Shown: positions 34,781 to 59,700 of the stretch, in pieces
Numbering within the stretch: the first letter of the stretch is position 1
Layout of the letters: every line of letters starts with the position of its first letter
Source of the DNA: Macrostomum lignano
Lineage: Eukaryota
Direction of reading: 5' to 3'
DNA: 64,000 nucleotides
NCBI GenBank assembly: GCA_002269645.1
Contig: NIVC01000045.1
Location: forward strand, 62,001 to 126,000
Position numbers and translations under genes: made by a program
Notes under the pieces: model-generated
The model's database searches: none
Told to the model about the DNA's origin: nothing
The model's input: the letters and a program-made list of their open reading frames with translations, nothing else

Positions 34781-36547
34781 CCAGATAAATTTGCTGCTTC
34801 AATGCAGACTCCAATTGCCGACCATCTGCTTAGCCTATGCCTGTTATTGCTTGTCTACAGTAATTCAGTAATTCTTGTAGCTTGTAGCTTCTCTTCTAAT
34901 CCCGCAAAACAGAATGCAGTCATACTATTAACAGCCTGCAGATATCCACTTTGTCGTCTACAACTTTCATTAACATCAGCAAACTACAATAATTCACTCA
35001 GCAGAATACAGTTATCCCCTCAATAAACTTGCAATTAATCATTCACAGTTATTATCCACTAAAACTCTGTAGATAGTTATCCCATCGGCAGTTTGCAGCT
35101 ATACACTTATAAGTCTGGAGGAACTACCTCAGCAGTTTTTCGTTTTTCAACTTTGCAATCTTTTGCACAACACAGCTTTTAGCAATACTTTCAGCAGTTT
35201 AGCAACATCGTCTGCATTTTAGCGATTTCTTAGACCTTAGGCAATAACAATTATTGATGGGATAACTGATAGTCGAAGCTAATTATTACTAATTAATAAA
35301 AAATAGTTGCTTTTAATCAAAAAATGTTCGATTAGTCCAGGCACAAGCTAAAAATAAATGAAAATTAATTTAATATATTTTTATCTCCCACGTGCATACT
35401 CTGAAGCTTGTGAATATTTAATTATTTATAGCTCGCAGCATCAGCTCAAGAAGTTAAAGTTTAGTCTATGGCCATAGACGTATTATTATTTTTCGAGCTC
35501 TCACGGCGGGCGGGCACTCCTCACTCCTGTCCTTATCTGTGCTTCTCTCTTCCTCCCGGCCTGTCCTTGGCCTTGTGTGTGTTTTTACGGCCTTGTTTTC
35601 CTTCTCTCTGTCTGGCTGCCTCGAGCCTCCTTGCCTCACGCCACGACTGACGCCAACTTCGCCACTGCTCATCTGCCTACTACGTCTCACTGCCTCTTCT
35701 GTACTCATTGCCATTGATCATCACGTTACGTCGCCATTACATCACTCGTCTGTCGCTTGAACTCACATCCAATTTATCTTAAAAGAAACCATTGTTGCAG
35801 CCGCCAGTGCCCAGAAAGCCATAGTTTGTTATTTGCCAGTGACAACCAACTTACTATTTATATTGATAATAAAAACCGACTACGGCAGTTTCCTGCCCTT
35901 ATTGCCAAGTGCTCCGCTACACCAACCACTTCGCATAAGTTGACTTCAACTTATTTTGGGACTAAAACGGCCCTTTTAAGGGTCACGGCCAACATCAAAT
36001 AACGTGACAAGGTAACAGGAAGCTATGAGACATGGATAGTCGTGAAGTTCTGCGGGAAAAATTGATTGCCGTTATGAAAAACAAAATCCCTAAAAGGTAA
36101 ATTAATTGTACACACCGACGTCAATGTGCTCAAGTTATCAAGTACTTGCACTCTATAGTTTCAACTAAACAGCATCATTAGCCGTTACTTGATTGATGCC
36201 TGAAATTGGGAAATTAGGAAATCGTTTGCGTCTGGTTTGCTACATGAAACGAATCGAATCGCCTCGCCTCAAATACCATTGATTTTTTTTCAATCTCAAT
36301 TTAGCAAAATTGAAAGTGCTAAACTTCTTAACCATACAGAAGGCGCTCTCCCATTCAAATTAAAATAAAATCCTTTCCGCTGACAATTGCATATTGAAAT
36401 AGTTTTAATTGTTGTCTCAGCTTTCTGTCGGATCTGCGTACGAGTATTCTAAGATTAAACAATGAGCGGCAAGTCCGACTGTGTTTTCCTGCGGTGTTAA
36501 ACCTTCTCTTGAGATGGTATATTTTCAATCTAAATCACTGATGGAGT

Positions 36548-37990
36548 TCACGTAAATACAAAGGATGTAAGCTTTTGGATGTAAGGATGTAATACCGGAC
36601 GAACGGTATTCGCCTTTCCGGTAATGTACATGAGTGTAAACTGATAATCCTGTAGATATAGAATCCATTTTTGTAATCGCCGGGACAGTGGTTGTTTGTC
36701 AGCGAAAAGCGATTGCAGTGGCTGGTGATCTGAGTAGATGGTGAACGGCTGGTAAGAGGCATACAAGAAGACATGGAGTTTCTTGATCGCCCAATAGATC
36801 GCATAGGCTTCTCGTTCGATTGCCGGGTATCGTTGTTCAGTGGCCGATTGTGTCTTCGAGATGTAGGCCACAGGCTGTTGGTGTCCTTCGGAATCTGCTT
36901 GGGAGAGTACGGTGCCGATAGCCGGATCCGAGGCGTCGGTGTGGAGGACATACGGCTTGTAAGGGTCCGGGGTGGACTAGTCGGATGTCGGTGGTAAGTA
37001 TATTTTTGAGCACATCGAATGCTGACTACTGTTCCTTGTTCCAGATTATCTTTTACGTCTTGGATGCGTTGCGCAGGGCGTTGAGTAGTGGTGCGACTAT
37101 TGTGGAGTATCCCTTGATGTGCGTTCGATAGAAGTTCGCCATTCCTAGAAAATATTGTAGTTGTATCACTGTCGCTGGGATCGGAAATTTGTTGATTTTC
37201 TCAACCAGGGATGGTGCTGGTCTGATGCTGTCTTCAGAGACTTGAAAACCAAGAACTTCCGGTTTCGCAAAGACACATTTTCGAAGTGAAATTCTAAGTC
37301 CATGTTGCCTCAGTTTGTGTAAAAAGTGTTCGAGTTCAACCATCATGTCGTTGAAATCTCCAGAGATGAGCAGTATGTCATCTAGATATGCGATTAGGTT
37401 CGGTGAGTCCGCAGTTAGTAGCGAGACGAGACGACATATGATGCTGGGGCTTGATTTGAGGCCTTGCGGAAGTCTATTGAATTGCCAAAGAAGTCCGTTT
37501 GGCGCAATGAAGGCTGTATACTTTGAGCTCTGTGGATCTAGTTGAACTTTGTAGAAAGCGTCAGCGAGGTCACAGAGAGAAAACAGTTTAGCGCTTCTCA
37601 GCCGGTGTAGTAGATCAGGTATTTTCGGAGGTCGTATGCTTGGCGTGCTAATGATCTTGTTCAATCTGCGGAAGTCGGCAAGTTGGCGGAGTTGTCGTCG
37701 GCCTTGTTCACCGAGTGTTTTCTTTTCGACCAGTAGACATGGGCTGGAGTATTCGGATTCACTCGGGCTGAGGATGCCTTTCCGGACGAAGTTGCTTATT
37801 AGCTCGTCAAAGCGCTCCTGTAGGCCATGTGCGATTGGAAATGGCCGTGACGTGATTGGGTCGGAATGCTGGTGGACACTAATTTTGGCCGTGTATTGTG
37901 TCGTGCAGCCCATATCGGTTGGCAGGAGGGCCAGTGTGTCATGAAATCGGGATAGAATTTCAACCCCTTGTTTCCGTTGGTCCGGTGATA
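36548..37990 (-). pseudogene. pol: Reverse transcriptase-RNase H (frameshifted)
   Basis: ORF 37053-37913 (SPCLLVEKK, LADFRRLNK, DLADAFYKV, RLPQGLKSSP, YLDD, FLGMANFYR) and ORF 36548-36871 (RH). Confidence 0.9.
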
Positions 37991-38226
37991 AGTGTTGATT
38001 CTTCTTAATCTAGTTGGTCTTTGATCAAGTCTTCGTCGCTTTTTGTCATATCAGGTTTGACATCCAAGGCGTTGATTTCTGTTATGGCTGGCGCTGAGGC
38101 TAGCGTATAGTCTGCTGGGTCTGACAGTGCGCCGAGATGAGTTCTGGCATATAGCGTTACGGGTTGAAGTGTCGGATTCGAAATCTGAAGCAGTATGGAG
38201 CGTCCGGTTTTGTCAGTCTAGCATAA

Positions 38227-38835
38227 TTATGCTGCTAGAAGTAGCTTGTAGCGTTGCATCGTATGGTCCTTTGGTATAAATAGGACTGGCTGGCGGAGTG
38301 CCAGGTGTGGACAGTTCGGCTGACACCCACGTTGTTGTCTGTGCTGGGATGTGGGTGGCTTTCGGAAGTTGGACGTTGACTGTGTTCGTTGGAACAGCCA
38401 TCGTACTGAGCATCGGAAATGTCGTACCATCGATTTGGGCTTGAAGGTCTGGAAGGTCTCTACCCCAAGGATGAGATCATATTCTTTGGACATGTTGTCC
38501 AGAACGAAGGCAGACAGAAATCTTGTGTTCCTTTGAGCCAATCAGTATGCAGAAACTGGCTTGTTTCTTAATGTGGATCAGTGGATCAGTTGTCCGCCTG
38601 CACATTGCACGTGAAGTGAGTGTGGTGTGATCTTGGCGTTCAGTTTCTGTGCAAAAGTCGGTGAGATGCAACTGATTGAGGCGCCGCTGTCGATGAGAGC
38701 CGTGCATTTGTGTCTTGTCGCTGGAGGCATAGTGCACCATAGTGTTATCAACGTGCGCGTGGTGAGATGTTTGAGGACGGTGTTGTATGCGATTGGCCAT
38801 GGAGGAACCGGTGGTTTAGGCGCAGGTATTGGTTT
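38227..38835 (-). pseudogene. pro: Retroviral-type aspartic protease, in frame with env after TGA
   Basis: Continuing the env frame past TGA (38836-38) gives KPIPAPKPPVPPW...CTALIDSGASISCISPTFAQKL. An 8-nt (tgatccac) and a 4-nt (tctg) duplication interrupt the frame, then SAFVLDNMSKEYDLILG follows in the same frame. Confidence 0.8.
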
Positions 38836-40500
38836 TCACACCGTCGTAGGAGCTACGGATGTTGGTTCGGTCTGTTGTGCCCGTCGTGGTGGTGAGGAGT
38901 TTATTAGTACCATTGGTACTTGGTTTGGAGCTCGAGTGGGTGAGGATGCATGGCGCCGTCTGCTCCTTGGGCTATCTGTTGTTCGGAGGACCATCAGACG
39001 GTGTGTACGTCCGTATCGTACCGTGTTCGCGACGCAGAAGCGACCAATATTGCAGATGAAGATTAGTAGTGCGGCATACACGATGACCGCGGAGCTGAAC
39101 AGGAAACGTTCCATGTGGTTGTCGCGGAATCGTTCCCAATTAAAGATAGAGGTGCTCCAGAGATTCTTAAATGCTTGTGTGGCGTCCAGTCTGAAGTTTG
39201 AGGCGTCGGATAGCAGTTCTTGGCGAGTTTTGTTGTTGTTCATCTTGAAGACAGTAACTAGGAAATCTCTTGTTTGCATGAATTGTTCCATCATGTCTGT
39301 GACGGTGACCGGACTTCGCAGAGTGCTGTAGTTGACATCGCCAATGGGTGTGAAAATGCTCTGTCTCAGGTCGTTATAGAGTGATTGTAAAAGGTACGTT
39401 TCGTCCGTGACCTGATGTGAGTCTAGTTCGCGAATGTCACTGAAATTAGTCGTTGCTTTGAAGATAAAGGTGTCTTTGGTAGATAGTATCCATCTTGATA
39501 TTCGCACGGTATTAGTGGTGGTTTCGCGGTTGAGACGATGAGCGTGGTGGTATCCAGATAAGCTAGTACGCTCCTGTTCTGCAGCAGCTAAGAGTGCTGC
39601 AGTGCTGCAGCAGCTAAGAGTGTGCTGAAACGGTGTAACTGCAAATGTTAAAGCTAGTGTTTGGTCGTCGTTGATGAAAAAGTTGGAGTGCTGTAGTCCA
39701 TTCAGCGCACGAAACGGTATGAGTGAACAATCTGATTGTGGTGGTACGCTCCAAGACAGCGTTAGTTGTCGCTCGCCTGCTGCGTGAAGAGTGGCGACGG
39801 CCGGTGGAGTTAGTTGTGTCCACGCCGCTGTCAGAAGCTGATGTGGTAGATTAAAGCGCATCATCTGTTCCACAGTTGTCGGGATGATGCAACCTTTTGT
39901 TGAATAAACACAATGTTTGATTGGAAACGCCAGTGATTCCATCGGATCTGTTGGACTAGCAAAAGCAGCGATGTAAGTAATCAAGGTGGATGCCGTTATC
40001 GTTTGAGTACGGGAGGCAAGGCAGTTCTCCAGCAAAGATGTCTGTATGGCTGACCGGAATAGTTATTGGCCAGAAACTGTTGCTGCGATTTGTAGTTGGC
40101 CATCAGGTGAATTTCTGGACTCGACCCATTGTTGACAAGCGAGTGGCGTTATCGATTTCGATTTCACAGCTATTTGGGCTTCGCGAAAAGTGCGTAAGTG
40201 TGAGCCAAGACGATTGCAGTTGATTGGTATTTCTTCCAGATAACAAATGTTCATCATTATCCGGGTCTTCGCTAGGTTCGAGGTGTAGAGCCGTAGACGC
40301 ACTGGGATGGCTCTTGCTTCTTGTGGGTTGAAGGACTCGCACCGTATTTCGGTAGGGATCTTGAAAATTCGAACTGGGTCGTTGAGTGGGCAGACCATTG
40401 GTGTGTCGACGAATGTCGGGGTGATCGAGTGGTGCCGTTGCGTTACGTGTTTCGACACTTCCAATCAGAGTGGTGATCAGCAAACCAAGGAGTAGTACGC
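38836..40500 (-). pseudogene. env: Envelope-like type I membrane glycoprotein (class III fusogen-like), with one frameshift and one nonsense codon
   Basis: Signal peptide VLLLGLLITTLIGSVET and an NAT sequon (gag frame); frameshift ~40420 into a Cys-rich ectodomain (MVCP..C..ICY..NC..LACQQW..NC..HCVYSTKGC..LSW..DC..LTF..CC); TAA at 40063-65; RLNR; TM FLFSSAVIVYAALLIFICNI; basic tail. Confidence 0.7.
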
Positions 40501-41960
40501 CTGGTTGACCGCGAGTGTTTAGATGAGTCGTCTTGCAGGCCGGTTGTCTCAGAGGACGCTGAATTGTGGGCGCGCAGTCCGGGCATTCGGGAGTCCAGGA
40601 GACGACCTGGATGCCCATGACTTCGGTCTTGGTGCTCTGCTGCCGGAGCTTAAGGGTACGCAGAAGGTTGTACTGCGGTCCAGTCCCAGTGCAGTAGTAT
40701 GGTTCACTAGTTGCTGGAGTAGACACATTGACTTCCGGTTTTGATTCCATGGCCTTGTCGGCACCCGTCGGCTGCGGTTGTTCAGTGCTGGAGGGTGCGC
40801 CTGTCGTCACGACCTGTAGGGCGTTTAGCGAGGCGGCTGGGGCTCGCGGTGACGGCGATCGTGAGTGGCTTCCGTTTGGTCGGTTTGGGCCATAGGAATT
40901 TCTGTTGGAGAAGCGGCCCTGTCGTCTGTCTGAGTGTTGATATTTGATTGCGCGGCATTCTCTGGTATTGTGAGATGTTGTGCGATGGAATTTGCAGTAC
41001 TTTTTCCCAATACCACAAGTGGAAGGTGATTGTGAGCGCTGGCGTTGAGGGTTTGGGTCAAATCTCCTTTGACGACAGTCTCTGGCGATGTGGCCGACCT
41101 TGTTGCAGTTGTAACATTCGCGACTGGAAGGTCGTCTAGGTGGTTGAGGCATAGGCGTCTGGACAGCGGCAAGTGTGGGTTTTGTAGTCTGGTTCCCGGA
41201 TTCTAGGGCGGCTAGCCGTTTTGTGAGCTCGGCCATTTCGGTGGAGGCTGTGGCTTGAGTATTGTCTGCAATTTTTTCTGCTCGGATGGCCTGACTCAGT
41301 AATTCTTGTTCCGTTTGGATTGGGATGCGCATCAGTTCTCGGCGAATGTAGGGTAGCGTCCCGTTTAGAATGTTGGCAATCAGTGTCGTTGTGAAGTCAT
41401 TGCCCCGTTGGCAGATTACAGCCTGGTTGGGGGGTTCGTTAAGACCGTCGGGAATTGGTTCCGGTGCGATGGCGGGATAGACCGTGGGTAGTTTTTTGCA
41501 GACGTCGCTGAAGTATTGAGTGAACGATTCGCCGGGCTGCTGTCTTCGACTTGCAATTTGTTGCAGAAGTGAGGTGGATCCGTTTGTCAGGTCTCGAAAG
41601 CGGGCACGCATGTGCTCAAGCATGCCCGTGTAGGTACCTTGTTGCGCGGGCGTTAAATTGGAGAATTCGATTTTGAGCAAATCGTTTAAGAATCGCGGGA
41701 AAATTCGAAGCTTAGTATAATCATCCAAATTGAAAGTGCGGGTGGCCAGATCAAACTCCATGACAAACGTCGCGAAGCCGTGCAGTTTATCGATATCCTT
41801 CAGGGCTTCGCGGATTTCGTTGATCGTCGATGATGATTACTGAAGGCGTTGGTCTTTGGGCTGGCTGCGCGGGACCAAGCTGTTGTAGTAGTTGCTGTTG
41901 CTGCAGCTGTTGTTGCTGTGTAAGGTTTTGGATGAGCTCTTGCAGCTGGTTGGCGTCCAT
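40480..41960 (-). pseudogene. gag: gag (frameshift near 41820)
   Basis: MDANQLQELIQNLTQQQQ... then INEIREALKDIDKLHG leading into ORF 40103-41761, with CYNCNKVGHIARDC and CKFHRTTSHNTREC zinc knuckles. Confidence 0.8.
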
Positions 41961-42864
41961 GATGATTTCCGGTACAAGCAGATAGGCTGGTGGTGAATAA
42001 CCAGAGGGCCAAGCAGTTGGGGAAGTAGTTACGTCGGGAGTAGAGCCGGAAAGTCATCGGGTACTCGAGGTTGTTCTGTCAAGTGCTTGGTCTGTGTCAG
42101 CGGCTGGCGCTGGGTTTCGTTGCAACTTTCGCGATTTAGTTGTAGGGGATTGTGATGCTGCTGGTCGACCAGAGCGTAAGAGCATGCAGGATCCTGCTAT
42201 CAAAAGAAGAGATTCTGGTTTGTAATAAGAGTGTAGTGAAGATGAGAAATAATTGAATTAAGCAATATTTTGAGACTACACGAGCATTATAGAATATGGG
42301 TCGTGTTTAACTGGACTATCCCTTTGGTCATCATTTTGTAATATCGGTATGACTTGTAATGAGAATTTTGATATGTATGTACACGAGTGACTACTGTTTA
42401 AGTAGTATCAGACGATAATCAAACAGAATATGTGTGTATCAGCGTATTGATCAAAATTGTAGGCTGTAGAGCCTGTAGACTTCTTTGTAAACGAATACGA
42501 GCATCTATTGCAAAATAGGCTATACAACAGGGCCACAGACTACGGTATGGGCTTGCTAGGAAACGGTACGACGGGTGCCACAGGTGCGTTTGTGGGCTTA
42601 TTGCGAGACGATATAGCGGGTGCCACAGGTGCGTTTGTGAGCTTATTACGTGAGTTCGGTACACGAACTGTGATGCATAATGAGTTGCCAGCCAGGAATG
42701 AATGTCGCGACAGGGCGACCGTCGCAGCTTGTGCGACCTTTTAACAGGAATCGCCGATTTGCGATCTCCGACCAGCTCTTCGGGCAAAGCTTGTGTGGCC
42801 GGGTTAACGACTGAGTGCCACTACCAAATTAGTGGCACGTATTGGGGTCGTAATTCGAATTACC

Positions 42865-44446
42865 GAATTACGACCCCAAGAAACCCGTGGCTCTGGAGTG
42901 TGATGCTTCCCAAAAAGGACTGGGCGGAGTTCTGATTCAATACAACAGACCGGTTTTTTTCATCAGCAAGAGGTTATCAGAAGTCGAGAAAGAGTATTCT
43001 CAGATCGAAAGGGAGGCCCTTGCAATTGTCTGGTCAACTCAGAGGTGTCAGCGATTTTTAGCGGGACGTCATTTCAAGCTGATCACGGATCACAGACCAT
43101 TAACCTACATCTTTGGGCCGAACGAGGGCCTGCCTACGCGCGTATCAGCATGCCTTCAAAGATGGGCGATATCGCTAATGGCTAATGGTCGCTAATGGCA
43201 TATGGGTATACGCTCGTACAATCGGGAGCATCCAACTACCCTCAACGATCATATCCATTCAAGGGGTTAGAGACCAATCACAGGATTGCCCAGAGATCGT
43301 TCTGTTAAAAGAAGCCATCTGGACGAGCAACTTTAACGACCCGAGAATCCGCCCCTACAAGGCAGTCGCGGACGAACTGACGATCGAGTTGGACGTGGTA
43401 CTCCGAGAGATGCGAGTCATTCTTCCAAAGACGTTGCGGTTATCACATCACACAGCACACATCTAGGCATTGACCGAACCAAGTCACAGTTTTGGTGGCC
43501 CGGCTTGGATCGAGACGTAAAACGACTCATCGAAAATTGCAAGACGTGCAAAATGGTCAAGGCTGACAATCGAAACTACCTAAAATCTTGGCCGACAGCA
43601 ATGGACGCTGGAGAGCGCGTACATGCGGATTTTGCGGGTCCAATAGATGGCCAATATTTGTTGGTGCTGGTGGACGCCATGTCGACCTACCCTGAGGTGC
43701 ATCTGACCGCCAACATGGAGTCATCTACAGTCATCTCTAGGCTATGGAGAACTTTTTCGCAGTGGGGTGTGCCAAGGACACTTGTCACCGACAACGGCCC
43801 AAGCTTCGTCTCAGCTGAAACAACACAGTGGCTGAAAGCAATCGGGTGCAGCCATCTGACCACACCTCCATATCACCCTCAGAGCAACGGAGTCGCTGAG
43901 AGATTTGTTCGCACAGTGAAAGAATCTGTGTCAGCGTTGGGTCTGAGTCAACACAACATTGACAAGTTCCTACTGTTCTACCGATCATCCAAAGGAAATA
44001 ATGGTCGCACACCGTCGGAGAAGTTTCTAGGTCGAAACATCCGGACTCCTTTGATGACAGAGTTTTCTGGAGATGACGATGTGGTGTACAGGACACAAGG
44101 AGCTACGTCACTAGCCAGAATCGTCCTGCCTACACGCCGCAACACGGCAATCATCAAGCTTGAAAACGGCTTGTACAAGAAGGCTCACAGAGACCAGATA
44201 CGGAGCTTCAAGGGCAGCGATGACAAGGACATTGGCCCGGAACAAGCTACCACTGGTGCTGCTGGTGAGGTCGATCACCCTCCAGCTATGCGCCCTGGAG
44301 AAGAGGAGCAGGAGCAGCAGCAGCAGCAACCTAGAAGAAGTGAAAGACTGATGAACAGACCGACTGTGAATTATAAGGAGTTAACTGTAATTTTGAAGCA
44401 AGGAGGTGCTGCGGTCTGGCTTCTGCCCGAGCAGATTGAACTTTAA
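42865..44446 (+). mobile_element. pol: Gypsy pol fragment (RNase H + integrase, K02A2.6-like), 5'-truncated and frameshifted
   Basis: NYDPKKPVALECDAS, EREALAIVWS, TDHRPL; integrase HADFAGP, VDAMS, LVTDNGPSF, PPYHPQSNGVAERFVRTVK; tail RRSERL..RP..Y; purine tract aagcaaggagg followed by TG at ~44407. Confidence 0.88.
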
Positions 44447-46674: not shown

Positions 46675-48846
46675 GAGGGTTCATCGGAAGTCAGAGTTAA
46701 ACTCTGACTTCCGATGAGCATCATTGCTTAAAATTTCAAAACTCTTACGTAATCTACGCACTTTATGTACACTATCGTGAATTCTTATCAGTCGATGCTT
46801 CTAAGGGGGTTTGAGATAAGGTTACCTCCACCTCGCCTATGTCTCACCTTTAAGTCGCGCACCTGAAGTCACCCACCCCTTACTCTGCACCCACCCCTAA
46901 ATTAATTACAAATATAAATATTTGCGTGTCTAGAGATCAAATCTCAGATAGAGAAAAGCGGACGGCTGCAGAGATGGAGGCACCGCTCATTAATTGGAAG
47001 CATTTGCCCTGCAGTGAGCTGGGCAACGTGACTAAGGACGAATTGAATTTTGTTTCGGAGGCTTCTTACAATGACAGAAGGGACGACGAGTTCGCTAGAT
47101 TTCTCGAATTCATTCAAAAGGAGCCCGAGCCCGATGAGCATCTGCCGCTCCTGCAGGAAGGCGGCGTAGATATCAGCGCCATGGACATCGCCGAGATTGA
47201 CAGCCTACCAGCAGACAGCAGGAAGCAGATGATCAGCCATGGACAGCGGTTCAAGACATTCCTCACAGAGGAAAATCTTCAGTGCAATTTACAAACCATT
47301 CCGAATTCGGTGCTCAACCAATACATTCGCTACTTCTACTTTAAACTGAAGAAGATTGACGGCGAACCTTACTCGCCCGCATCGCTGGTGTGCATCAGGG
47401 CTGGACTGCAGCGCTATTTGCGGATGATCGAGAAGCTAACCGTTGACATCATCAATGGAGAAGACTTTTCTTCTGCAAATAGCATGCTGCGTGTGAAGGT
47501 TCGAGACTTTCACCAGAGTGGTGGGAGGACGCAGCAGTTTGAGCCAATCGAGGAGGGGGACATGAGGAAGCTGATGATCTACTTCCAAGGCAGCACAGCT
47601 GAAGTTGAGCAGGACAAATTCTTATTCTACATCATATACAGCTTTGGCGAGCGAGGCCAGGAGCACCTCAAGTTCTTGAAGGATAGAAGCTCACTTCAAT
47701 TGCACGTCGACTCTGATGGAAAGCCGTACTACTGTCTGCCTCCGTTGCCCTCGAAAAATAAGTCAGCAGATCCAGAGAAGGCCAAGAAGCAGCCGGACAA
47801 CAAGCAGGCCAGAATTTACGACGTGGAAAAGGTGGAGAAATACCTCAAGCTGCTTCCAGTTACAACGAAGGACAACAATCTGTTTCCTCGTCCTTTGGCC
47901 AGCCGCAACGATGGAGGCCCTGTTTTCTCCTCGAAGCAGAACCGTGGAGAGAATTATCTGAGTGGCTTCATGAGAAACTTGAGTACGAAGGCGGGACTTG
48001 CGAAGACCTACACGAATCATTGCATTCGGTAAGACTGATAAATTAATAATAGTAACTTTAATTATGTTATGATACATGTTATGTTACCAGTTACTCATGA
48101 ATCCAACTATATAAATTTGCACTCTAAAACAGGGTCACGCGAATATGCGATCTCGAGGCGGCAGGGCACAGCATGAGCGATATAATGAGCATTTCTGGAC
48201 AGCTGAGCGAGCGAACGACTAGGAGGTACCTAGCCAAGCGTCGCGACCGGTCGCTTCAAAAGACGAGTGAGTCTGTTCAGGTGGCGTTGAATCGTCATGA
48301 TCTAGAGCAAGAAGCTGGGCCACCCGAACATGCTGATGCTGTTGAGATTGTCGGTGAGACTGCAGTATCGACGGAGGTTAGTGTTAGCACTGAAGCTGCC
48401 TATTCTGTTGGTACGAAGTTTGCCTTCAACAATTGCACCTTTCACGGATGTTCCTTTAATTAGGCATGCAATCTTTACTTCTACAAAAATCAGCAAATTG
48501 TACTCGTAGAATTACTGAAAGAATAAGAACGACAGTCTAGTTTAATATTTTTTATTTAATGACTTTTAGTACTTTGCTCGACCAGTATGATGTTCATCAC
48601 CGACAAAAATTTACATGATATACTGACACCAGCTGTGCTTTTTGTACTGTCGATTTTGCAATTCTTGTGCCAGTTTAATTATTTACATCTTAAAATAAAC
48701 GTTTTGAATTGACTGATGCAAAATATGCTTTGCAAGATGCTGGATAAAAACTGGCTTGAATTAATTGGTTGCATTGGAATTGGAATTCTAGGCAATGGCC
48801 GGCCATTGCCATGGGTCATTGCCATGAGGAGAAATTTTGGGCAATG
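46675..48846 (+). mobile_element. Crypton-type tyrosine-recombinase DNA transposon inserted in the 5' LTR
   Basis: 2172-bp interruption relative to the intact 3' LTR; CAATG duplicated at both junctions (46670-74, 48842-46); encodes a DUF3504/YR-type protein. Confidence 0.85.
46974..48463 (+). CDS. Crypton tyrosine recombinase (DUF3504 / ZMYM-QRICH1-KCTD1-related YR), 2 exons
   Basis: Exon to 48028 (phase 2) plus exon 48133-48463, GT-AG intron 48029-48132. Motifs DGEPYSPASL..IRAGLQRYL, FGERGQE (Arg), YTNHCIR (HxxR), MSISGQ, RRY (Tyr). The start codon is uncertain. Confidence 0.85.
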
Positions 48847-48953: not shown

Positions 48954-49796
48954 ATGACTGAAAATGAAGGCAGTGCAGAGAGCCCTGCAGTGGCGGTGAC
49001 TCAGCCCCAAGCTAGTTTTGTCAACATGTTTTTGCGGCCGCCTTAATACCAGCATGGACAAGACTTTGAACTTTGGCTGGCGCGATTCAACAATTTCGCA
49101 TCATCTCTTCCTGTGGATCAGCGCAAGAATGCTCTGCTGTCATTCCTCGACGACAAATCATATCAAGCGGCCAGCAATTTGGATGCTGCCCTGTCCTACG
49201 ACGACTTTGAGAAGGCTCTGAAAAATCGATTTCGGCCATCAACATCCTCTGCTGAGCTGCAGGCGCAGTTCTTCAATCTGACTCAAAAGGACGGTCAGTC
49301 GGTTGCAGACTATTCCGATGCCCTGATCGTTGCGGCAAAACGCGCTTTCCCGAGTCTGATGGAGACGAAAGCAAGTGCCGAGCAGGAGACGTCGGTGACA
49401 GCGAAGGACGAGCTTCTCAAAGGTCGGTTTCTATCCGGATTGAGGGACCCAGCTGTGCGAATGCAGACGCAGATGCAGCCAAAGGCGACATTCGCTGATA
49501 CAGTTGAAACAGCGCGATTCGTGGAATCGATACAGTCGCAAGGAGGCACTGCTACGGCTCTAGCTGCTGAGGTTCTGGAAGCCTTTGCAGTCGGAATTCA
49601 ACGGTCCCTGAAGGAGCTGTCCAACAAGCTCAGCCGCTGGGAGTCAAAGGACCAGGATCATCGTCAGAGCGGCGACAGACGCAGAGTTGTGACATGCTGG
49701 AAGTGCGGTAAGCCGGGCCATGTTCAAAGATTTTGCACTCAGAAGTCGGGAAACTTCGATGGAGCGGCGACCGCCGGGGTGCCGTTCCGCAAGTGA
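48954..49796 (+). pseudogene. gag: gag with one in-frame TAA
   Basis: ATG 48954 is in frame with ORF 49113-49796; TAA at 49044-46; CWKCGKPGHVQRFC knuckle. Confidence 0.88.
49748..49788 (+). promoter_or_regulatory. -1 programmed ribosomal frameshift signal
   Basis: Slippery heptamer G GGA AAC (49748-54) in gag frame, 6-nt spacer, hairpin ggagcggc/gccgttcc. A -1 slip enters the pol frame (KLRWSG). Confidence 0.8.
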
Positions 49797-52700
49797 GAAT
49801 CCCGGCGCAACCAATCGTAGAGGTGTCCTGCTCAGCCACTGGTGCCAACATGCTGGTAAACTGTCGCATCCTGCCAATGTGTATCCCTGCCAGCTGTCTA
49901 GTTGACACTGGGTGTTCCCAGTCTTTGATGTCAAGTTCCCTGTTTCGCAAGCTGAATGACAGGCTCCTGCCTTTGACGACTCCGGTGCAGTTGAAGCTAG
50001 CAGACGGTAACTATTTGGCTGCCTGTGGTTGGCAGGAAGTGCAGCTAAGTTTCGGTGTGGCAACGGTTCGACAAAGAGTTTTAGTTGTCGACAATCTGGC
50101 CAAGGATTTTTTGCTGGGTGCAGATTTCCTGGCAAACTGTGGCTGCGTCATCGACTGCAATCGCCAAACGCTCACTGTGTGCGGTCAGCAAGTAAAAATG
50201 GAGTCATCGGCAGCAAGTAGCTGTGTATTCGCCGTTGAGGTAGCAGACAGGACAACCGTGCCCGCTGGTAACGAAATCGTTTTCCCAGCGAGATTGGCAA
50301 GTGAGTCAGATGCAGCTGTTGATGGTGAGTGCGGCATCTTTGAGCCTGACAATTCGAAGGACATCTCCACGGTCATGTGTGGAGCGCGCAGCCTCTCGGT
50401 GTTGCGAGGAGGACTCATCGCCGTTCACTATGTCAATACGGACACCAAGCCGCATACATTTTACCCCGGAACAAGACTGGGGACTTTTGAGCCGATGTCA
50501 GATGGTGCCGATGCAGAGTTGTCAATGCAAGTTGAGACAGTGAAAGGTCAAATCGCCGAGTATGTACCAAATGTGCACATTGATGAGAAAAATCTTACAG
50601 CCAATCAAGTTCAGTGTGTCAAAGATCTTCTGCATCAGTACCAGGATGTGTTCTCGAAAAGTCCAAACGACCTGGGCTGCACTTCACTCCTTGACCACAA
50701 AATTGACACCGGGTCGGCGAAACCTATCAGAGTGCCCCCTCGTCGATTGTCGCCGCCGAACCAGCGAGCTGTGTCAGAGATGGTCGAGCAGATGGTGAGA
50801 GACGACATCGTAGAGCCTTCGAATTCTCCGTGGTCGAGCCCGGTCATTCTGGTGAAGAAGAAGGACGGCAGTTTGCGCTTCGTGAACGACTTCAGACTGC
50901 TCAACTCCGTGACCGTCAAAGACAGTCATCCACTGCCTCACACCAGCGATCTGATCGATGCTCTCGCAGGATCCACAATGTTCTCAACGCTCGACTTCAC
51001 TAGCGGGTACACCCAGGTGATGCTGGACTCAGAGAGTCGCGCAAAAACAGCATTTCCTGCGCCACAAGGATTATTCCAGTACAAGAGACTACCGCAAGGT
51101 GTGTGCAATGGTCCTGCCACGTTTTCAAGGCTGATGGAACTCGTTCTGAAGGGCCTCTGATGGGAAGTGTGCCTGTCATTTCTTGACGACGTTGTCATCT
51201 TTTCGAAAGGATTCGAGGAGCATCTGCGGCGTCTTGAGCTTGTGTTGCAGAAATTCAGAACCGCTAACCTGAAGTTGAAGCCGACCAAGTGCCACTTGTG
51301 CTATCAGGAGATCTCATTTCTTGGCTTTCGAATCTCAAAAGATGGCGTGACCACTGACCCGGACAAGGCGAAAGCAGTGCAAGAGTGGCCAACGCCCGAA
51401 GATCGTTCAGAAGTGCGTCAATTCCTGGGGTTATGTGGCTACTATCGTCATTTCGTTAAAAACTACAGTGAGATTGCTGAACCGCTGTACAAGCTAACGC
51501 AAAAGGACGTGACCTTCAGCTGGACTCTCGAATGCTCAGCAGCATTTAATCGACTAAAGCAGTGCCTTACTTCCAGCCCAGTCCTCATCATGCCGACATT
51601 CGCAGAAGACGCTGAGTTCGTGCTAGATACCGATGCCTCTGGCGTGGCCATCTCCGGAGTTCTTCAAGAGCGCCGTGGTGGCAGGACGCAGGTGGTGGCG
51701 TACGGCAGTCGCATTCTGTCCAAAGCAGAGAGAAATTACTGCACAACGAGGCGTGAGCTGCTGGCAATTGTGCACTTCGTCGGTCACTATCGCAGCTACT
51801 TGTTAGGAAAAAGATTCACACTACGTACTGATCACGCCTCGCTGATCCATCTTCTGCGCTTTCGAGATCCCGATGGTCAGCTGGCACGGTGGCTGGATAA
51901 GCTAAGCGAATTCGACTACCAGACGGAGTATCGCAAGGGCGAGAAACATGGAAATGCAGACGCACTTAGTCGGCGACCGTGTCGAAAAGGACCTTGCCTG
52001 TGCAGTGGCTCTGCGCTCGCTGTCGAGTTCAATGACGACAGCGCGATTCGACGAGCACAGGCAGAGGATCGGTGCATGCAGAAGCTGGCGAACTGCTTGC
52101 GAGATGGTCAACCACCGGATAAGGCAGAGAGGGACGGCTGGAGCAATCGGCAGCGGCAACTGCTGTCCGAGTTTAAGCGGCTGACACTGGTGAACGGACT
52201 GCTGTGCCGCCGATGGGAATCCGAAGATGGCAGCGCCTTTTGTCAGCAGCTGCTGGTGCCAGAGAGTCTACAGCGCGATGTTTTTGTCGAAGCTCATGCT
52301 GGAACGAGCGGCAGCCACTGCGGACCGCAGAAGACCATTGAAAAGATCAGGGCGCGACTCTACTGGCCTGGAATGACAGCAGATGTGACTGACTGGTGTG
52401 CTGCGTGCCTCGAATGCGCGACGCTGAAAGATTCTGGCCAGCACAGGCGGGCACCTCTACAGAGCATGGCGGTCGGCAGCGTTGGCCAGCGACTGGAAAT
52501 GGACTTCATGGTGGGCCTGCCGAGGACCGATCGTGGAAATTCAGTCATCCTGGTAGTCATCGACACCTTCAGCAAGTGGACTGAGGCCTTTCCACTGCCG
52601 TCTCAAGACGCTGAGACCACAGCCCGGACGTTTGTCAACGAGTGGGTGGCTCGCTTTGGAGTCCCGCAGTAGGTGCACACCGACCAGGGTCGGAACTGGG

Positions 52701-53402
52701 AGTCACAGCTGTTTCAAGAGACGATGCGGCTGCTGAAAATCGACAAGACTCGGACGACAGGCTACCACCCTGAAGGAGACGGCGGTTGCGAACGGATGAA
52801 CCGGACACTGGTACAGCTGCTGCGTGCATGGGTGAACGATAATCAGCGAGACTGGGATCTTCATCTGCAGATTGCACTGATGGGCTACCGCACTTCAGTC
52901 CACAAGTCGACTGGTCAGACACCTTCGGCGATGCATTTCGGCCGGGAACTGCGACTACCACTGGACTTGGCATACGGAGGTCTGGCGCCGGATAGGCAAC
53001 GTCCTTGTGAATGGGTGGCCGAGCTGCGGAGCCGGCTGCAGACATCGCACGAGAGGGCGCGACAAAACTTGGAGGCAGCGCAACTGCACCAGAAGGCAGC
53101 GTACGACAGGAGGTGCCATGGCGAGGCATTCAGCGAGGACGATCTGGTCTGGCTGCACAATCCGGCGCTGAAGCGAGGCGAGAGCCGAAAATTTCATCGA
53201 TGGTGGACTGGGCCATGGCGCGTTAAAAAGCAGATCTCAGACGTCACCTACCGCATTCAGCACGAGGCCAATGCACGACGGCGAAGGGTGGTGCATTTCA
53301 ATCGCCTGAAGCCATGCAACACGGCCAGTCCAGCTGCAGCACCTCAATTGCAACCAGCGGCGCAACTGCACAATCCTGACGAGGACGACCTGAGATTTGA
53401 CG

Positions 53403-53640
53403 GCGTCCCAGCCGGCGCCCCAGCCGGCGTCCCAGCCGGCGCCCCAGCCGGCGCCCCAGCCGGCGCCCCAGCCGGCGCCCCAGCCGGCGCCCCAGTCGGC
53501 GCCCCGGTCGGCGCCCCAGCCGGCGCCCTAGCCGGCGCCCCAGCCGGCGCCCCAGTCGGCGCCCCAGCCGGCGCCCCAGTCGGCGCCCCAGCCGGCGCCC
53601 CAGTCGGCGCCCCGGTCGGCGCCCCAGCCGGCGCCCCTGC
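53403..53640 (+). repeat. In-frame 12-bp repeat (~20 copies) encoding (P-A/V-G-A/V)n in the integrase tail
   Basis: Unit CCAGCCGGCGCC with CCAGTC/GGCGTC variants. Confidence 0.95.
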
Positions 53641-53920
53641 TGATGTTCCAGAGCATCCTGAGCAGCCTGTATTGCGCCGAAGTGAGAGGGCCCGTGCCCC
53701 GCCAGAATTTTTTGGTGAAGTGTATACTCATTGAATGCAGATTTTCTTAGAAATTTTTTTTTGAAACATTGACATTGCTTAAGTTTTTTTTTTTAATTTC
53801 CTCTTTTATTTCCCTCAAATACTTATTCGTTCAAATATTCGATCACAATTCGTCGAACTCATACTCGTTACTTTTTTTTAACACAACGAAAAATGCAGAA
53901 AGTGAGTGGAACACTTTTTT

Positions 53921-55990: not shown

Positions 55991-56716
<726 letters not shown>

Positions 56717-59700
56717 ATGCAGATATAGCTTGACATTTCGAGTAAAAAGAAGCCCTCAAAGTAAATTGTTGCCATGAAAGCAGAAAATTCATGGGCAGCT
56801 TTGTGTTGGACAAGAGATACTTAGCCTTAGCCATCCAAATTAAAAAAATGTGCTACTGCTAGGCAAAAAAAATTTATGGCTCATAAAGATCAATGGAGCT
56901 CCCCGAGTTTACCCATTTTCACGAATGCAGCTCAGAGCTGCTTAGCTGCAACGCAACTTGGTTCAATTCATGCGAGCAAGCGGGGCTGCGGGGTAAGGGT
57001 GGCATTGGGTGCTAGTATATTCGTACGACGAGATGAGCCCACTAGTGAACTCATTTGAAAATTGCCCAATTGTCAGTGGCGCCATCGGTTGTTGAGTTGC
57101 GGTTTCGACCTGATTTAAAAATAGAATTCGCTCTCATGCTTGCAAGATATAAAGGCTCTGTCGAACAAGAGTTTTCGGGCAAGCTTTCTTCATCTGCCGA
57201 AATTGAAACAGTTGCAGAAACTACCGAGAGTCTCACCAGTTTATGTAAGTAATCGACAGCTTTTGTTTAATTGCTATTGTTTTACACAAATATAGTACAT
57301 CCGTGTCACCAACAAGTTGAAACGCTGAATGCCTGCTTAACCTTAGATATAAGTAAAAGAGTGAGAAATTGCTTGGTCTTTTTTATTCCAAAATGTCTCC
57401 TCCCTAAAAGTACTGCTTAATTTGTATGTTTTCTGCATTGAAGTTTTGCATAGAGAAGCATTAATGTTATTAATTCCCGTGAAAGTTAATGATAGGGTCG
57501 CTGTTGAAAAACTACCTCGTTAAGAATTAATTCCGTTATGAGTAGTTAAAATTTTTCATCTTCGATTGAATGTTACGCCCGTATTTTCGATTTTACTTTA
57601 ATTGTCTCAACTTGCGGCGTCAGTCTTTTCAGATATTTGATTACATTCTATTGTTTAAATTTATATGCTTGGTCACCATTTGATTTAATTTCCAGGATAC
57701 TGATTTGTTGTTAGGGCAATTCGATCATCATAGGGAAAAAGAATCCACAGCTACGAGCGTATATCAGGCAATTTCTTGCTGAAGTCATGAACTCACAGTA
57801 AACCGAACACTTTTTAGCTTTGAGTTCTAGTTTACGCACCCGTGCACATATTAATGTCATATTCCAAGTTGTTTTTTTGGTACAAGGAGTACTTTACTAC
57901 ACATTACGTTACTTTAGTCGTCCTTGATTTGCTACTATCTAGTAAATTTTGGAAAACAAATTTCTTGGTCGCTACTAATAGTAGTATAGGACAAAATTTT
58001 AAATTTCATTTTTTTGCTGGTGTGCAGCATAATGTTTAGTTGGGCATTGTCACTCCTGCCATGCTACCGTGTAGAGAAGAATTTACATTTGCTCTTTAAC
58101 TCCGCGGTAAGCGTTGAAGCAATTTTGCCTGTATCATAGATGCTCATTTTTTTCGTAAGCGCGGACCAATCTTGAGACTAATTGAGCACAACACAATTGA
58201 CTAATTCATTAGACGACCCGACACGTTTTGCTCGGGTGTGTTCTAAAAAAAACTTGGAATTCAACTTTTTTATAAACATCTTTTAGATTTTTACCCTTAC
58301 CACATCTTACACTGTACAGGTAAATTTACGAGCATTAAAGCCTTTTGGTATTTAGCTGCATCAGCGCAGTTTGGTCTGATGTGTCCCGTAAAGAATGTCG
58401 AGTAAATTTAAGTGCAACCTATGCATGTACCACAGATACTGATATGCAAAGCTCGATAAACGTTGGAATTTAGACGTAGATACCATAAACATACGATTAG
58501 TCAATACACAAATAAAGGAATGGGTACTCTGGATTGTAACAAATATATTAGTAGTAGAATTATCATGAAGCTAAATTTTTCAAAATTTCTACGAGTTTTT
58601 TCTAGACTTCCAAATATGCCATCTTCCCTGTTATTTGTACAGGTCCCACGGTATTGCCATCATTTATACCGTAAGTGACAACTGCAGCTTACCTTGTGGC
58701 ATGGCTAGCATTGACTTACTTGACTTAGCTGCAGGACGGTCCGTAGACACAGCGGGGAGGCAGGGGTCGCCCATTCCGCTAGCCCCTGAAGGCCCGCAGA
58801 CAGGCAGAGGCGTGGGGCCGGTCAGGGTGATCCGCCGGTTTTATATTTACAAGTTGAAAAAATACTAATTGCAAAGAAGACTCCGTTTGTCATTACTAAA
58901 AGTAGTTTGTTGCAAAGTTAAGATAGATATAGACAAGAAAAATTAAGAAATTTATTGGATAGCAGGTTTGAGTTTCTTGCGATTAGTAAGATATTGTTTT
59001 TGTTTAGGCACCATTTTGACTGGTTTTCAACGAGTGTTAATAGTCCTACCTTATCCGTTCACCTTGAGAATGTCACCTTGATTTTGTTCCTAGAATACTG
59101 TACAGTTTTATCGATTTCAGCGCATTCGTGGCTCATATTGATAGTTCATGACTGTACTCAAATCTTGTTCTGTAACCCATAAAATTTCTCCAATTAGATT
59201 GATCCCAAGCTGCTCTTCATCGGCGGAGCATTCGGAGTCTGAAAACAGCGGCCACACTGGCTCGCGATCGAGCCGGCTCGGTTACTGAAAATTTCTGGTC
59301 ACCTGCAGGCTAATCATCAAATTAGTTAGGTGAGAATCAAAAAGTTGATTTTTTGTGAAAGCGTTGCAGAGCTGAATATTTCCATTGTTGAGTGGCATTT
59401 TATAATTCTAAATTTGTTGGCAAAGAAACGTTTGCTGGAGTTTTCTGATTACCTAATTCATGTAATGCCCGCAAGTAATAAATGTACGATTATTACACTC
59501 TAATATCTACTAATCTTTTACAATAACGTCTGAACATTTTTATGCAGCAGAACGCAATCCTTGTTGCCTATGGATCTTAAAGCTCGTCCACTGCTGTCTG
59601 CAGTCAAAAAATTATTTTCCTTGATTTTTATTAAACTCGCATATTTTTACAAGTTTCTACTTAAAAAGAGCCCTATTGTCATATACATACAGAAACCCCT

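Follow-up and report, generated by a model that had tools for sequence, protein, structure and literature searches.

Errantiviruses of Nematoda, Bryozoa and Platyhelminthes have been described as carrying only env genes of the gB type, in the order GAG-ENV-POL (Chary and Hayashi, eLife 2026, PMC13524379). In the part of that paper used here, nine flatworm elements are listed, among them Mlig_errantivirus_2 of Macrostomum lignano with 16 copies, and the mechanism by which these errantiviruses enter cells is described as unknown. Endogenous retroviruses of nematodes are also reported to have env before pol, encoding a glycoprotein resembling those of RNA viruses (Sacco et al. 2022, J Gen Virol, PMID 35550022), and Atlas, in the corresponding part of its preprint, is a Gag-Pol-Env polyprotein with a class II Env. 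Searching the literature for 'gag-env-pol' retrotransposons gave nothing beyond PMC13524379, and the phrase 'gag-env-pro-pol' appeared in none of the papers listed; the available text of PMC12801592 and of the Atlas preprint holds nothing further on the env family considered below.

The DNA analysed here is a stretch of 64 kb (the window), and we are highly confident that the region of interest within it is the env gene of a Ty3/gypsy LTR retrotransposon that belongs to the gB-type GAG-ENV-POL kind and is present here as a dead copy. The element lies on the minus strand at about 42185-36580, with env placed between gag (upstream) and protease-RT-RNase H (downstream), as seen from a reading of the frames, from Pfam and from tblastn, and it is a broken copy of a kind of element that has already been described. 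With the gB-type errantiviruses, as they appear in PMC13524379, it has in common a Ty3/gypsy pol, a gB-type env between gag and pol, an ectodomain lying between hydrophobic segments and, as we infer, a cysteine pair near the fusion loops, but the window copy is dead, deleted and truncated. The nematode endogenous retroviruses (PMID 35550022) are reported to be alike in having env before pol and differ in having been described from nematodes.

Much of what can be said about this copy depends on comparison with its relatives. A HMMER scan of 1.84 billion representative proteins gave nine matches at E<=0.001 for the window env read through its lesions, the best of which, P0002 (E=1e-153, 53% identical), is a single record of 2,852 residues containing, in order, Gag, a signal segment at 659-677, an ectodomain, a transmembrane segment at 1483-1501, PR, RT, RH and IN. 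Gag, signal and Env are continuous in five of the nine matches (P0002, P0003, P0005, P0006 and P0007), and Env, transmembrane segment and protease in four (P0002, P0003, P0005 and P0009); the continuity in P0003 and P0005 carries little weight, however, since both resemble spliced gene models to which unrelated exons have been joined. In P0004 the sequence stops after the tail, with no protease, and P0008 is a stand-alone env with a signal peptide of its own. A continuous gag-env-pro-pol ORF has reportedly also been seen in nematodes. Between domain II and the furin site P0002 carries a mucin-like linker of about 190 residues (roughly 995-1185) that is rich in Ser, Thr and Pro (S+T+P content 46-62% in 50-residue windows), an insert absent from P0005, P0008, P0011 and P0012 in the alignment designated A3; an RIRR site at 1192-1195, before the central helix, aligns with the furin site of EBV gB. 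A word-indexed search of 5.8 billion proteins returned no matches for the window protein, none among shorter proteins for P0002 690-1500, and three, itself included, for P0008. The LTR coordinates of Mlig_errantivirus_2 listed with PMC13524379 leave about 8.9 kb inside, which is roughly what an ORF of 2,852 codons would need, and from an interior of that size this element too may be single-ORF. The terms 'polyprotein', 'single ORF', 'fused' and 'mucin' are absent from the main text of that paper, whose supplements or figures could contain this family.

Reading from its 5' end, the broken gag (40511..42185, minus strand) starts with an ATG at 42185, runs into a stop at 42054-42056 and changes frame near 41836; it includes a capsid-like part at 41833-41150 and a CCHC zinc knuckle of the nucleocapsid at 41069..41119 (PF00098, E=2.8e-7), and is 55% identical to P0002 160-390 in a frameshift-aware alignment. 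Beyond env, and on the same strand, come an aspartyl protease (38444..38802; PF13650, E=9.7e-6) with the motif LIDSGA and its Asp at 38691, broken by frame changes and 68% identical to P0002 when aligned in the same way; a reverse transcriptase (37221..37904; PF00078, E=7e-23; 81% identical to P0002); and the connection domain with RNase H (36581..37220; PF17917, E=1.5e-35), containing two stops and one frame change. The pol order is therefore PR-RT-RH, cut before IN, as against a complete PR-RT-RH-IN in P0002: integrase is absent from the window copy, with 7 of 507 residues aligned to P0002, and the element stops at RNase H. By its sequence the carrier is Ty3/gypsy; in the PDB, P0002 matches Ty3 Gag-Pol best (E=1.9e-91), and none of the nine Pfam families matched by P0002 is a Pao-specific domain.

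No part of 36400-42900 has a second copy within the 64-kb window, as would be seen for a pair of LTRs, and there is no convincing PBS match at the element; a copy cut at both ends would be expected to lack both. The PBS of Mlig_errantivirus_2 gave 20 matches at two or fewer mismatches against 16.6 expected, none of them near the 5' end of the element, and there are no tRNA genes in the 64-kb window. Upstream of gag lies a 5' non-coding remnant (42186..42879, minus strand) that contains a 45-nt tandem repeat at 42548-42650 and, beside another gypsy fragment, a pair of perfect hairpins at 42815-42879. TATA, polyA and heat-shock element patterns were absent from the minus strand of 42150-42860, while Rfam, applied to 36000-43200, yielded two weak matches, both far below the gathering scores. 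On the plus strand at 42722-44446 a third gypsy element is represented by an RNase H-integrase fragment, which meets the env element's 5' end in a back-to-back arrangement; a perfect 16-bp hairpin marks their junction.

The wider surroundings are eukaryotic and animal-like, comprising myosin exons, micro- and minisatellite arrays and several gypsy fragments. The host may be a flatworm such as Macrostomum, to judge by genome traits and by the hosts published for this type of element. Exons for a myosin heavy chain tail, with short introns, occupy 850-3924 on the plus strand (PF01576), followed at 5840-15073 by a (CTAT)n microsatellite 9.2 kb long, with about 2,325 units, of which there is an inverted 0.7-kb copy at 55991-56718; several minisatellites with units of 18-63 nt occur between 19325 and 34782. 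At 15650-18608 (plus strand) a long ankyrin-repeat ORF precedes frames in which a Mab-21 C-terminal domain is recognised (PF20266, E=6.3e-7); together they are possibly a gene or pseudogene for an ankyrin and cGAS/Mab-21-like innate immune receptor. ORFs at 46854-48463 (plus strand) have a QRICH1-like match (E=2e-4) and, by eye, tyrosine-recombinase-like motifs; we take them to be perhaps a Crypton-type element. Finally, a second gypsy element at 49047-53734 (plus strand), which has no env, shows gag and an overlapping pol frame with a GGGAAAC heptamer in the region of overlap; it has two in-frame stops, and its integrase tail carries a 12-nt repeat.

Turning to env itself, the minus strand from 40464 to 38839 reads as 542 codons with a single TAA at 40063-40065, and all of the motifs on which the original prediction was built are indeed present there in one frame: CPL..IP..C at 40392-40341, ICY and NC at 40245 and 40218, ACQQW..SPDGQL from 40137, HCVYSTKGC at 39912-39891, LSW...DC at 39729, LTF...CC at 39612 and RLNR at 39537-39526. 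A putative internal signal sequence (40454..40510, minus strand; hydropathy peak 1.65) sits in the gag frame, at its end and at the very edge of the region covered by that prediction, the change from the gag frame to the env frame falling between about 40450 and 40420; the same segment is found in P0002, P0003, P0005, P0006 and P0007. The N-terminal half of env (39613..40419) covers the short N-terminal strands of domains IV and III, the fusion domain I and most of domain II, and is 50.6% identical to P0002 690-960 (269 of 271 residues aligned), with nine cysteines in common. The end of domain IV, a domain V-like arm and an aromatic membrane-proximal region follow at 39103..39477, at 62% identity to P0002 1323-1480 (158 of 158 aligned). 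In naming these segments we presume that what is generally known of gB carries over through the profile alignment to EBV gB. Hydropathy bounds the ectodomain by the signal segment at one end and a transmembrane helix (39046..39102; Kyte-Doolittle peak 2.36) at the other, after which a basic, Pro-rich cytoplasmic tail (38836..39045) ends in a TGA at 38838-38836 that is in frame with the protease, at a position where P0002 has no stop. Neither the gag/env nor the env/pro junction has a slippery heptamer, and P0002 is open at both, so that programmed recoding there was ruled out. Domain I contains an insert of about 37 residues (39890-39770, minus strand) that in alignment A3 is common to the window copy, P0002, P0006 and P0007 and missing from P0008, P0010, P0011 and P0012, and that on this alignment is a marker of this env sub-lineage. 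By eye, the Nematoda_c2 env rows compared from the supplement of PMC13524379 lack this insert, and the six Schmidtea rows compared appear to be of a different subtype from the window env.

That the glycoprotein belongs to class III, and is gB-type as had been proposed, is a conclusion that comes through family transitivity, by profile comparison, and it is strongest for the half of the protein that has largely been lost here. The profile used, A3, was made from 11 sequences, namely the P0002 ectodomain, the window N-terminal half and nine relatives or parts of relatives; another alignment, A2, in which full-length long proteins were included, was scrambled and was dropped. Against the PDB, A3 matches EBV gB (3fvc_A) at E=2.6e-20 over profile positions 17-488, and 20 of its 21 matches at E<=10 are to herpesvirus gB, the last being an unrelated chain at 0.35; four cysteines from the C-terminal half of EBV gB align with P0002 C1250, C1295, C1313 and C1349. 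A five-member profile made without P0002 still places gammaherpesvirus gB at the top five of seven PDB matches, albeit weakly (E 0.004-0.017), whereas a profile of four N-half-only sequences has no PDB match, the window env alone (either read through or as two open pieces) matches nothing in Pfam or the PDB, and P0008 alone gives one unrelated PDB match at E=0.88. With a profile built without either the window or P0002, three window env pieces come out at the head of the 1,285 six-frame pieces (E of 1.1e-41, 1.1e-18 and 5.9e-4; next best 0.6), from which it follows that the motifs are not due to chance; one made only from P0008, P0010, P0011 and P0012 finds two of them (1e-11 and 1.3e-7; next 0.53), these controls being partly independent only, as most of the profile rows came from the window query. 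Direct BLASTP of the window env against P0008 gives 24% identity over 262 columns (E=1e-13).

In relation to herpesvirus gB itself (EBV gp110, PDB 3FVC), the likenesses are in the spacing of the cysteines, the S/T/P linker and the furin site that precede the central helix, and the crown strands; the homology is only remote, however, the linker of P0002 is far longer, the fusion-loop positions are aliphatic rather than aromatic, and the element has no gH/gL partner. The approximate positions of the loops, loop 1 at 40194..40209 and loop 2 at about 40047-40021 (both minus strand), come from the profile alignment to 3fvc_A, in which the loops are substituted; EBV loop and furin numbering was taken from the available text of PMC12859058. 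The counterparts of the EBV loops are aliphatic in both the window copy and P0002 and are flanked by a cysteine pair (40218 and 40023), although the alignment is weak in this region. Such a pair would fit a remark in PMC13524379 that some of these envs have a cysteine bridge near the loops.

It had also been suggested that the glycoprotein was shortened, that the crown domain was deleted or divergent, and that no cysteines lay between an RxxR site, RLNR, and the transmembrane helix. Shortened it is: tblastn and frameshift-aware alignment both place a gap of about 350-360 codons relative to P0002 (roughly residues 961-1322) at a junction on the minus strand at 39570..39621 that carries a 26-nt direct repeat. 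By profile alignment to EBV gB, the lost segment comprises the end of domain II, the S/T/P linker of about 190 residues, the RIRR site, the long helix of domain III and the first half of the crown domain IV, together with three conserved cysteines. The crown suggestion was thus correct for half of that domain, but the trimer helix and furin site have gone as well. The first 36 codons past the junction belong to another frame. In the homologous frame 39584-39474 encodes a crown strand, a remnant of domain IV at 68% identity to P0002 over 37 residues (tblastn, E=7e-10), which includes a conserved cysteine at 39506 and is left through a frame change near 39477. RLNR is therefore an off-frame reading of this stretch and not a furin site, and the absence of cysteines holds in the wrong frame only. 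There is a general caution here: where an element has decayed, RxxR motifs and missing cysteines taken from a single frame may be misleading. Because the segment was really deleted from this copy, the shortened protein is not a natural mini-fusogen. Short repeats or perfect hairpins occur also at both ends of the element; with the junction repeat, they resemble the templated insertions described for alternative end joining. The copy decayed after it had inserted: about 1.1 kb was lost, probably through error-prone break repair, and with it the linker, the furin site, half of domain IV and the helix of domain III; point lesions broke every frame.

As to those lesions, over 41994-36560 frameshift-aware alignment to P0002 called six stops together with 13 frame changes, of which ten were kept: two cancelled one another where gag aligns poorly, and one lay beyond the truncation. 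There is a seventh stop near the start of gag. Five lesions fall in env and its junctions, and four frame changes are clustered within 38581-38304. A neighbouring plus-strand gypsy pol aligns in a single frame over 1,203 columns, which tells against general assembly indels, and assembly error was rejected as a general cause. An intact five-domain ectodomain with uninterrupted ORFs is seen in the sequence of P0002 and is lacking from the window copy, which is accordingly filed as a defective derivative and, judged by its reading frames, cannot make a fusogen. The original prediction saw here a potentially infectious element or a domesticable fusogen; as the copy is broken throughout and has neither integrase nor a 3' LTR, it is not the former, and as env is in no better condition than gag and pol on either side of it, there is no sign of the latter.

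A different history for the deletion would be that it arose while the element was active, in a derivative lineage that had lost env function and in which pol, sharing the ORF, had to stay in frame, a second frame change 107 nt farther on being retained for that reason. We regard this as unlikely, and the corollary that such a derivative would transpose within cells, with no need of fusion, as similarly unlikely. It would explain why the two frame changes on either side of 39584-39477 compensate one another, so that 40062-38839 stays open for 408 codons, and loss of env from a single-ORF element would indeed have to look like this. On the other hand chance suffices, the probability that 36 codons contain no stop being about 0.18; frame changes cluster elsewhere too, as in the group of four noted above; and the junction has a local duplication like those at both truncation ends, suggesting chromosomal repair. 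The same 408-codon open piece, which retains its transmembrane helix, is what could be said for a fusogen that the host uses, whether domesticated or short by nature, yet it has no signal peptide, begins after a stop inside domain I, includes the off-frame stretch and lacks the trimer helix, while what is found is not an intact env amid decayed gag and pol but an env broken at five places; we consider this reading extremely improbable.

The original prediction called the glycoprotein captured and likened it to those of Jingchuvirales and of invertebrate LTR elements. Similarly hard to sustain is a capture from Jingchuvirales, whether as a recent acquisition of a chuvirus glycoprotein or as an RNA-virus EVE inside an ordinary gypsy element. 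The glycoprotein of Monjiviricetes and Jingchuvirales (PF24664, Monjiviricetes_fusion), with its captures by mosquito BEL/Pao elements, does belong to the same gB-like superfamily, and three of the 11 family members (P0008, P0011 and P0005) match it, P0008 alone being shown above the cut-off (31.4 against 27 bits). However, neither the window pieces nor P0002 match PF24664, and the carrier here is Ty3/gypsy rather than BEL/Pao. Moreover, env stands in the same place in P0005-P0007, where it is only 22-29% identical, and relative to P0002 the env (51-62%), gag (55%) and RT (81%) of the window copy have been diverging together, so that the association of env with this element is old; an ancient association of env with pol is also argued for in PMC13524379. 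A recent capture is therefore, in our estimation, very improbable.

By itself the window copy is a fossil, and of little weight; the parts worth following are the single-polyprotein topology and the mucin-like S/T/P insert, of about 190 residues, of P0002. In the intact lineage which that protein represents, Gag, Env and Pol lie in one ORF with two hydrophobic segments. Gag would stay in the cytosol, an internal signal following basic residues would thread Env into the ER, and signal peptidase would cut the signal, leaving Gag anchored to the membrane; the transmembrane helix would stop transfer, and Pol would hang in the cytosol as a tail on Env until freed by the element's own protease. Furin would cut at RIRR and prime the trimer, which would fuse the enveloped particle with a neighbouring cell (by analogy, from soma to germ line). 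Signal cleavage, topology, use of furin and fusion are what we infer for this lineage from protein sequence. The fuller proposal, which we advance tentatively and at rather less than even chances, is of a still-active retrovirus-like lineage, probably of flatworms, in which Gag, a gB-type Env and Pol form one membrane-threaded polyprotein that would be processed in the manner of a flavivirus polyprotein, by signal peptidase, furin and the element's protease, and in which Env would bear a mucin-like shield of about 190 residues and non-aromatic, disulfide-pinned fusion loops. That one frame holds Gag and Pol with a herpes-like fusogen between them raises the question of how gB-type errantiviruses are processed and how they enter cells without gH/gL. 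If the proposal is true, anchoring of Gag by the signal peptide and carriage of Pol on the Env tail would couple assembly and protease activation to Env trimerisation; the element would then replicate by a design of its own, one that could be studied in the host.
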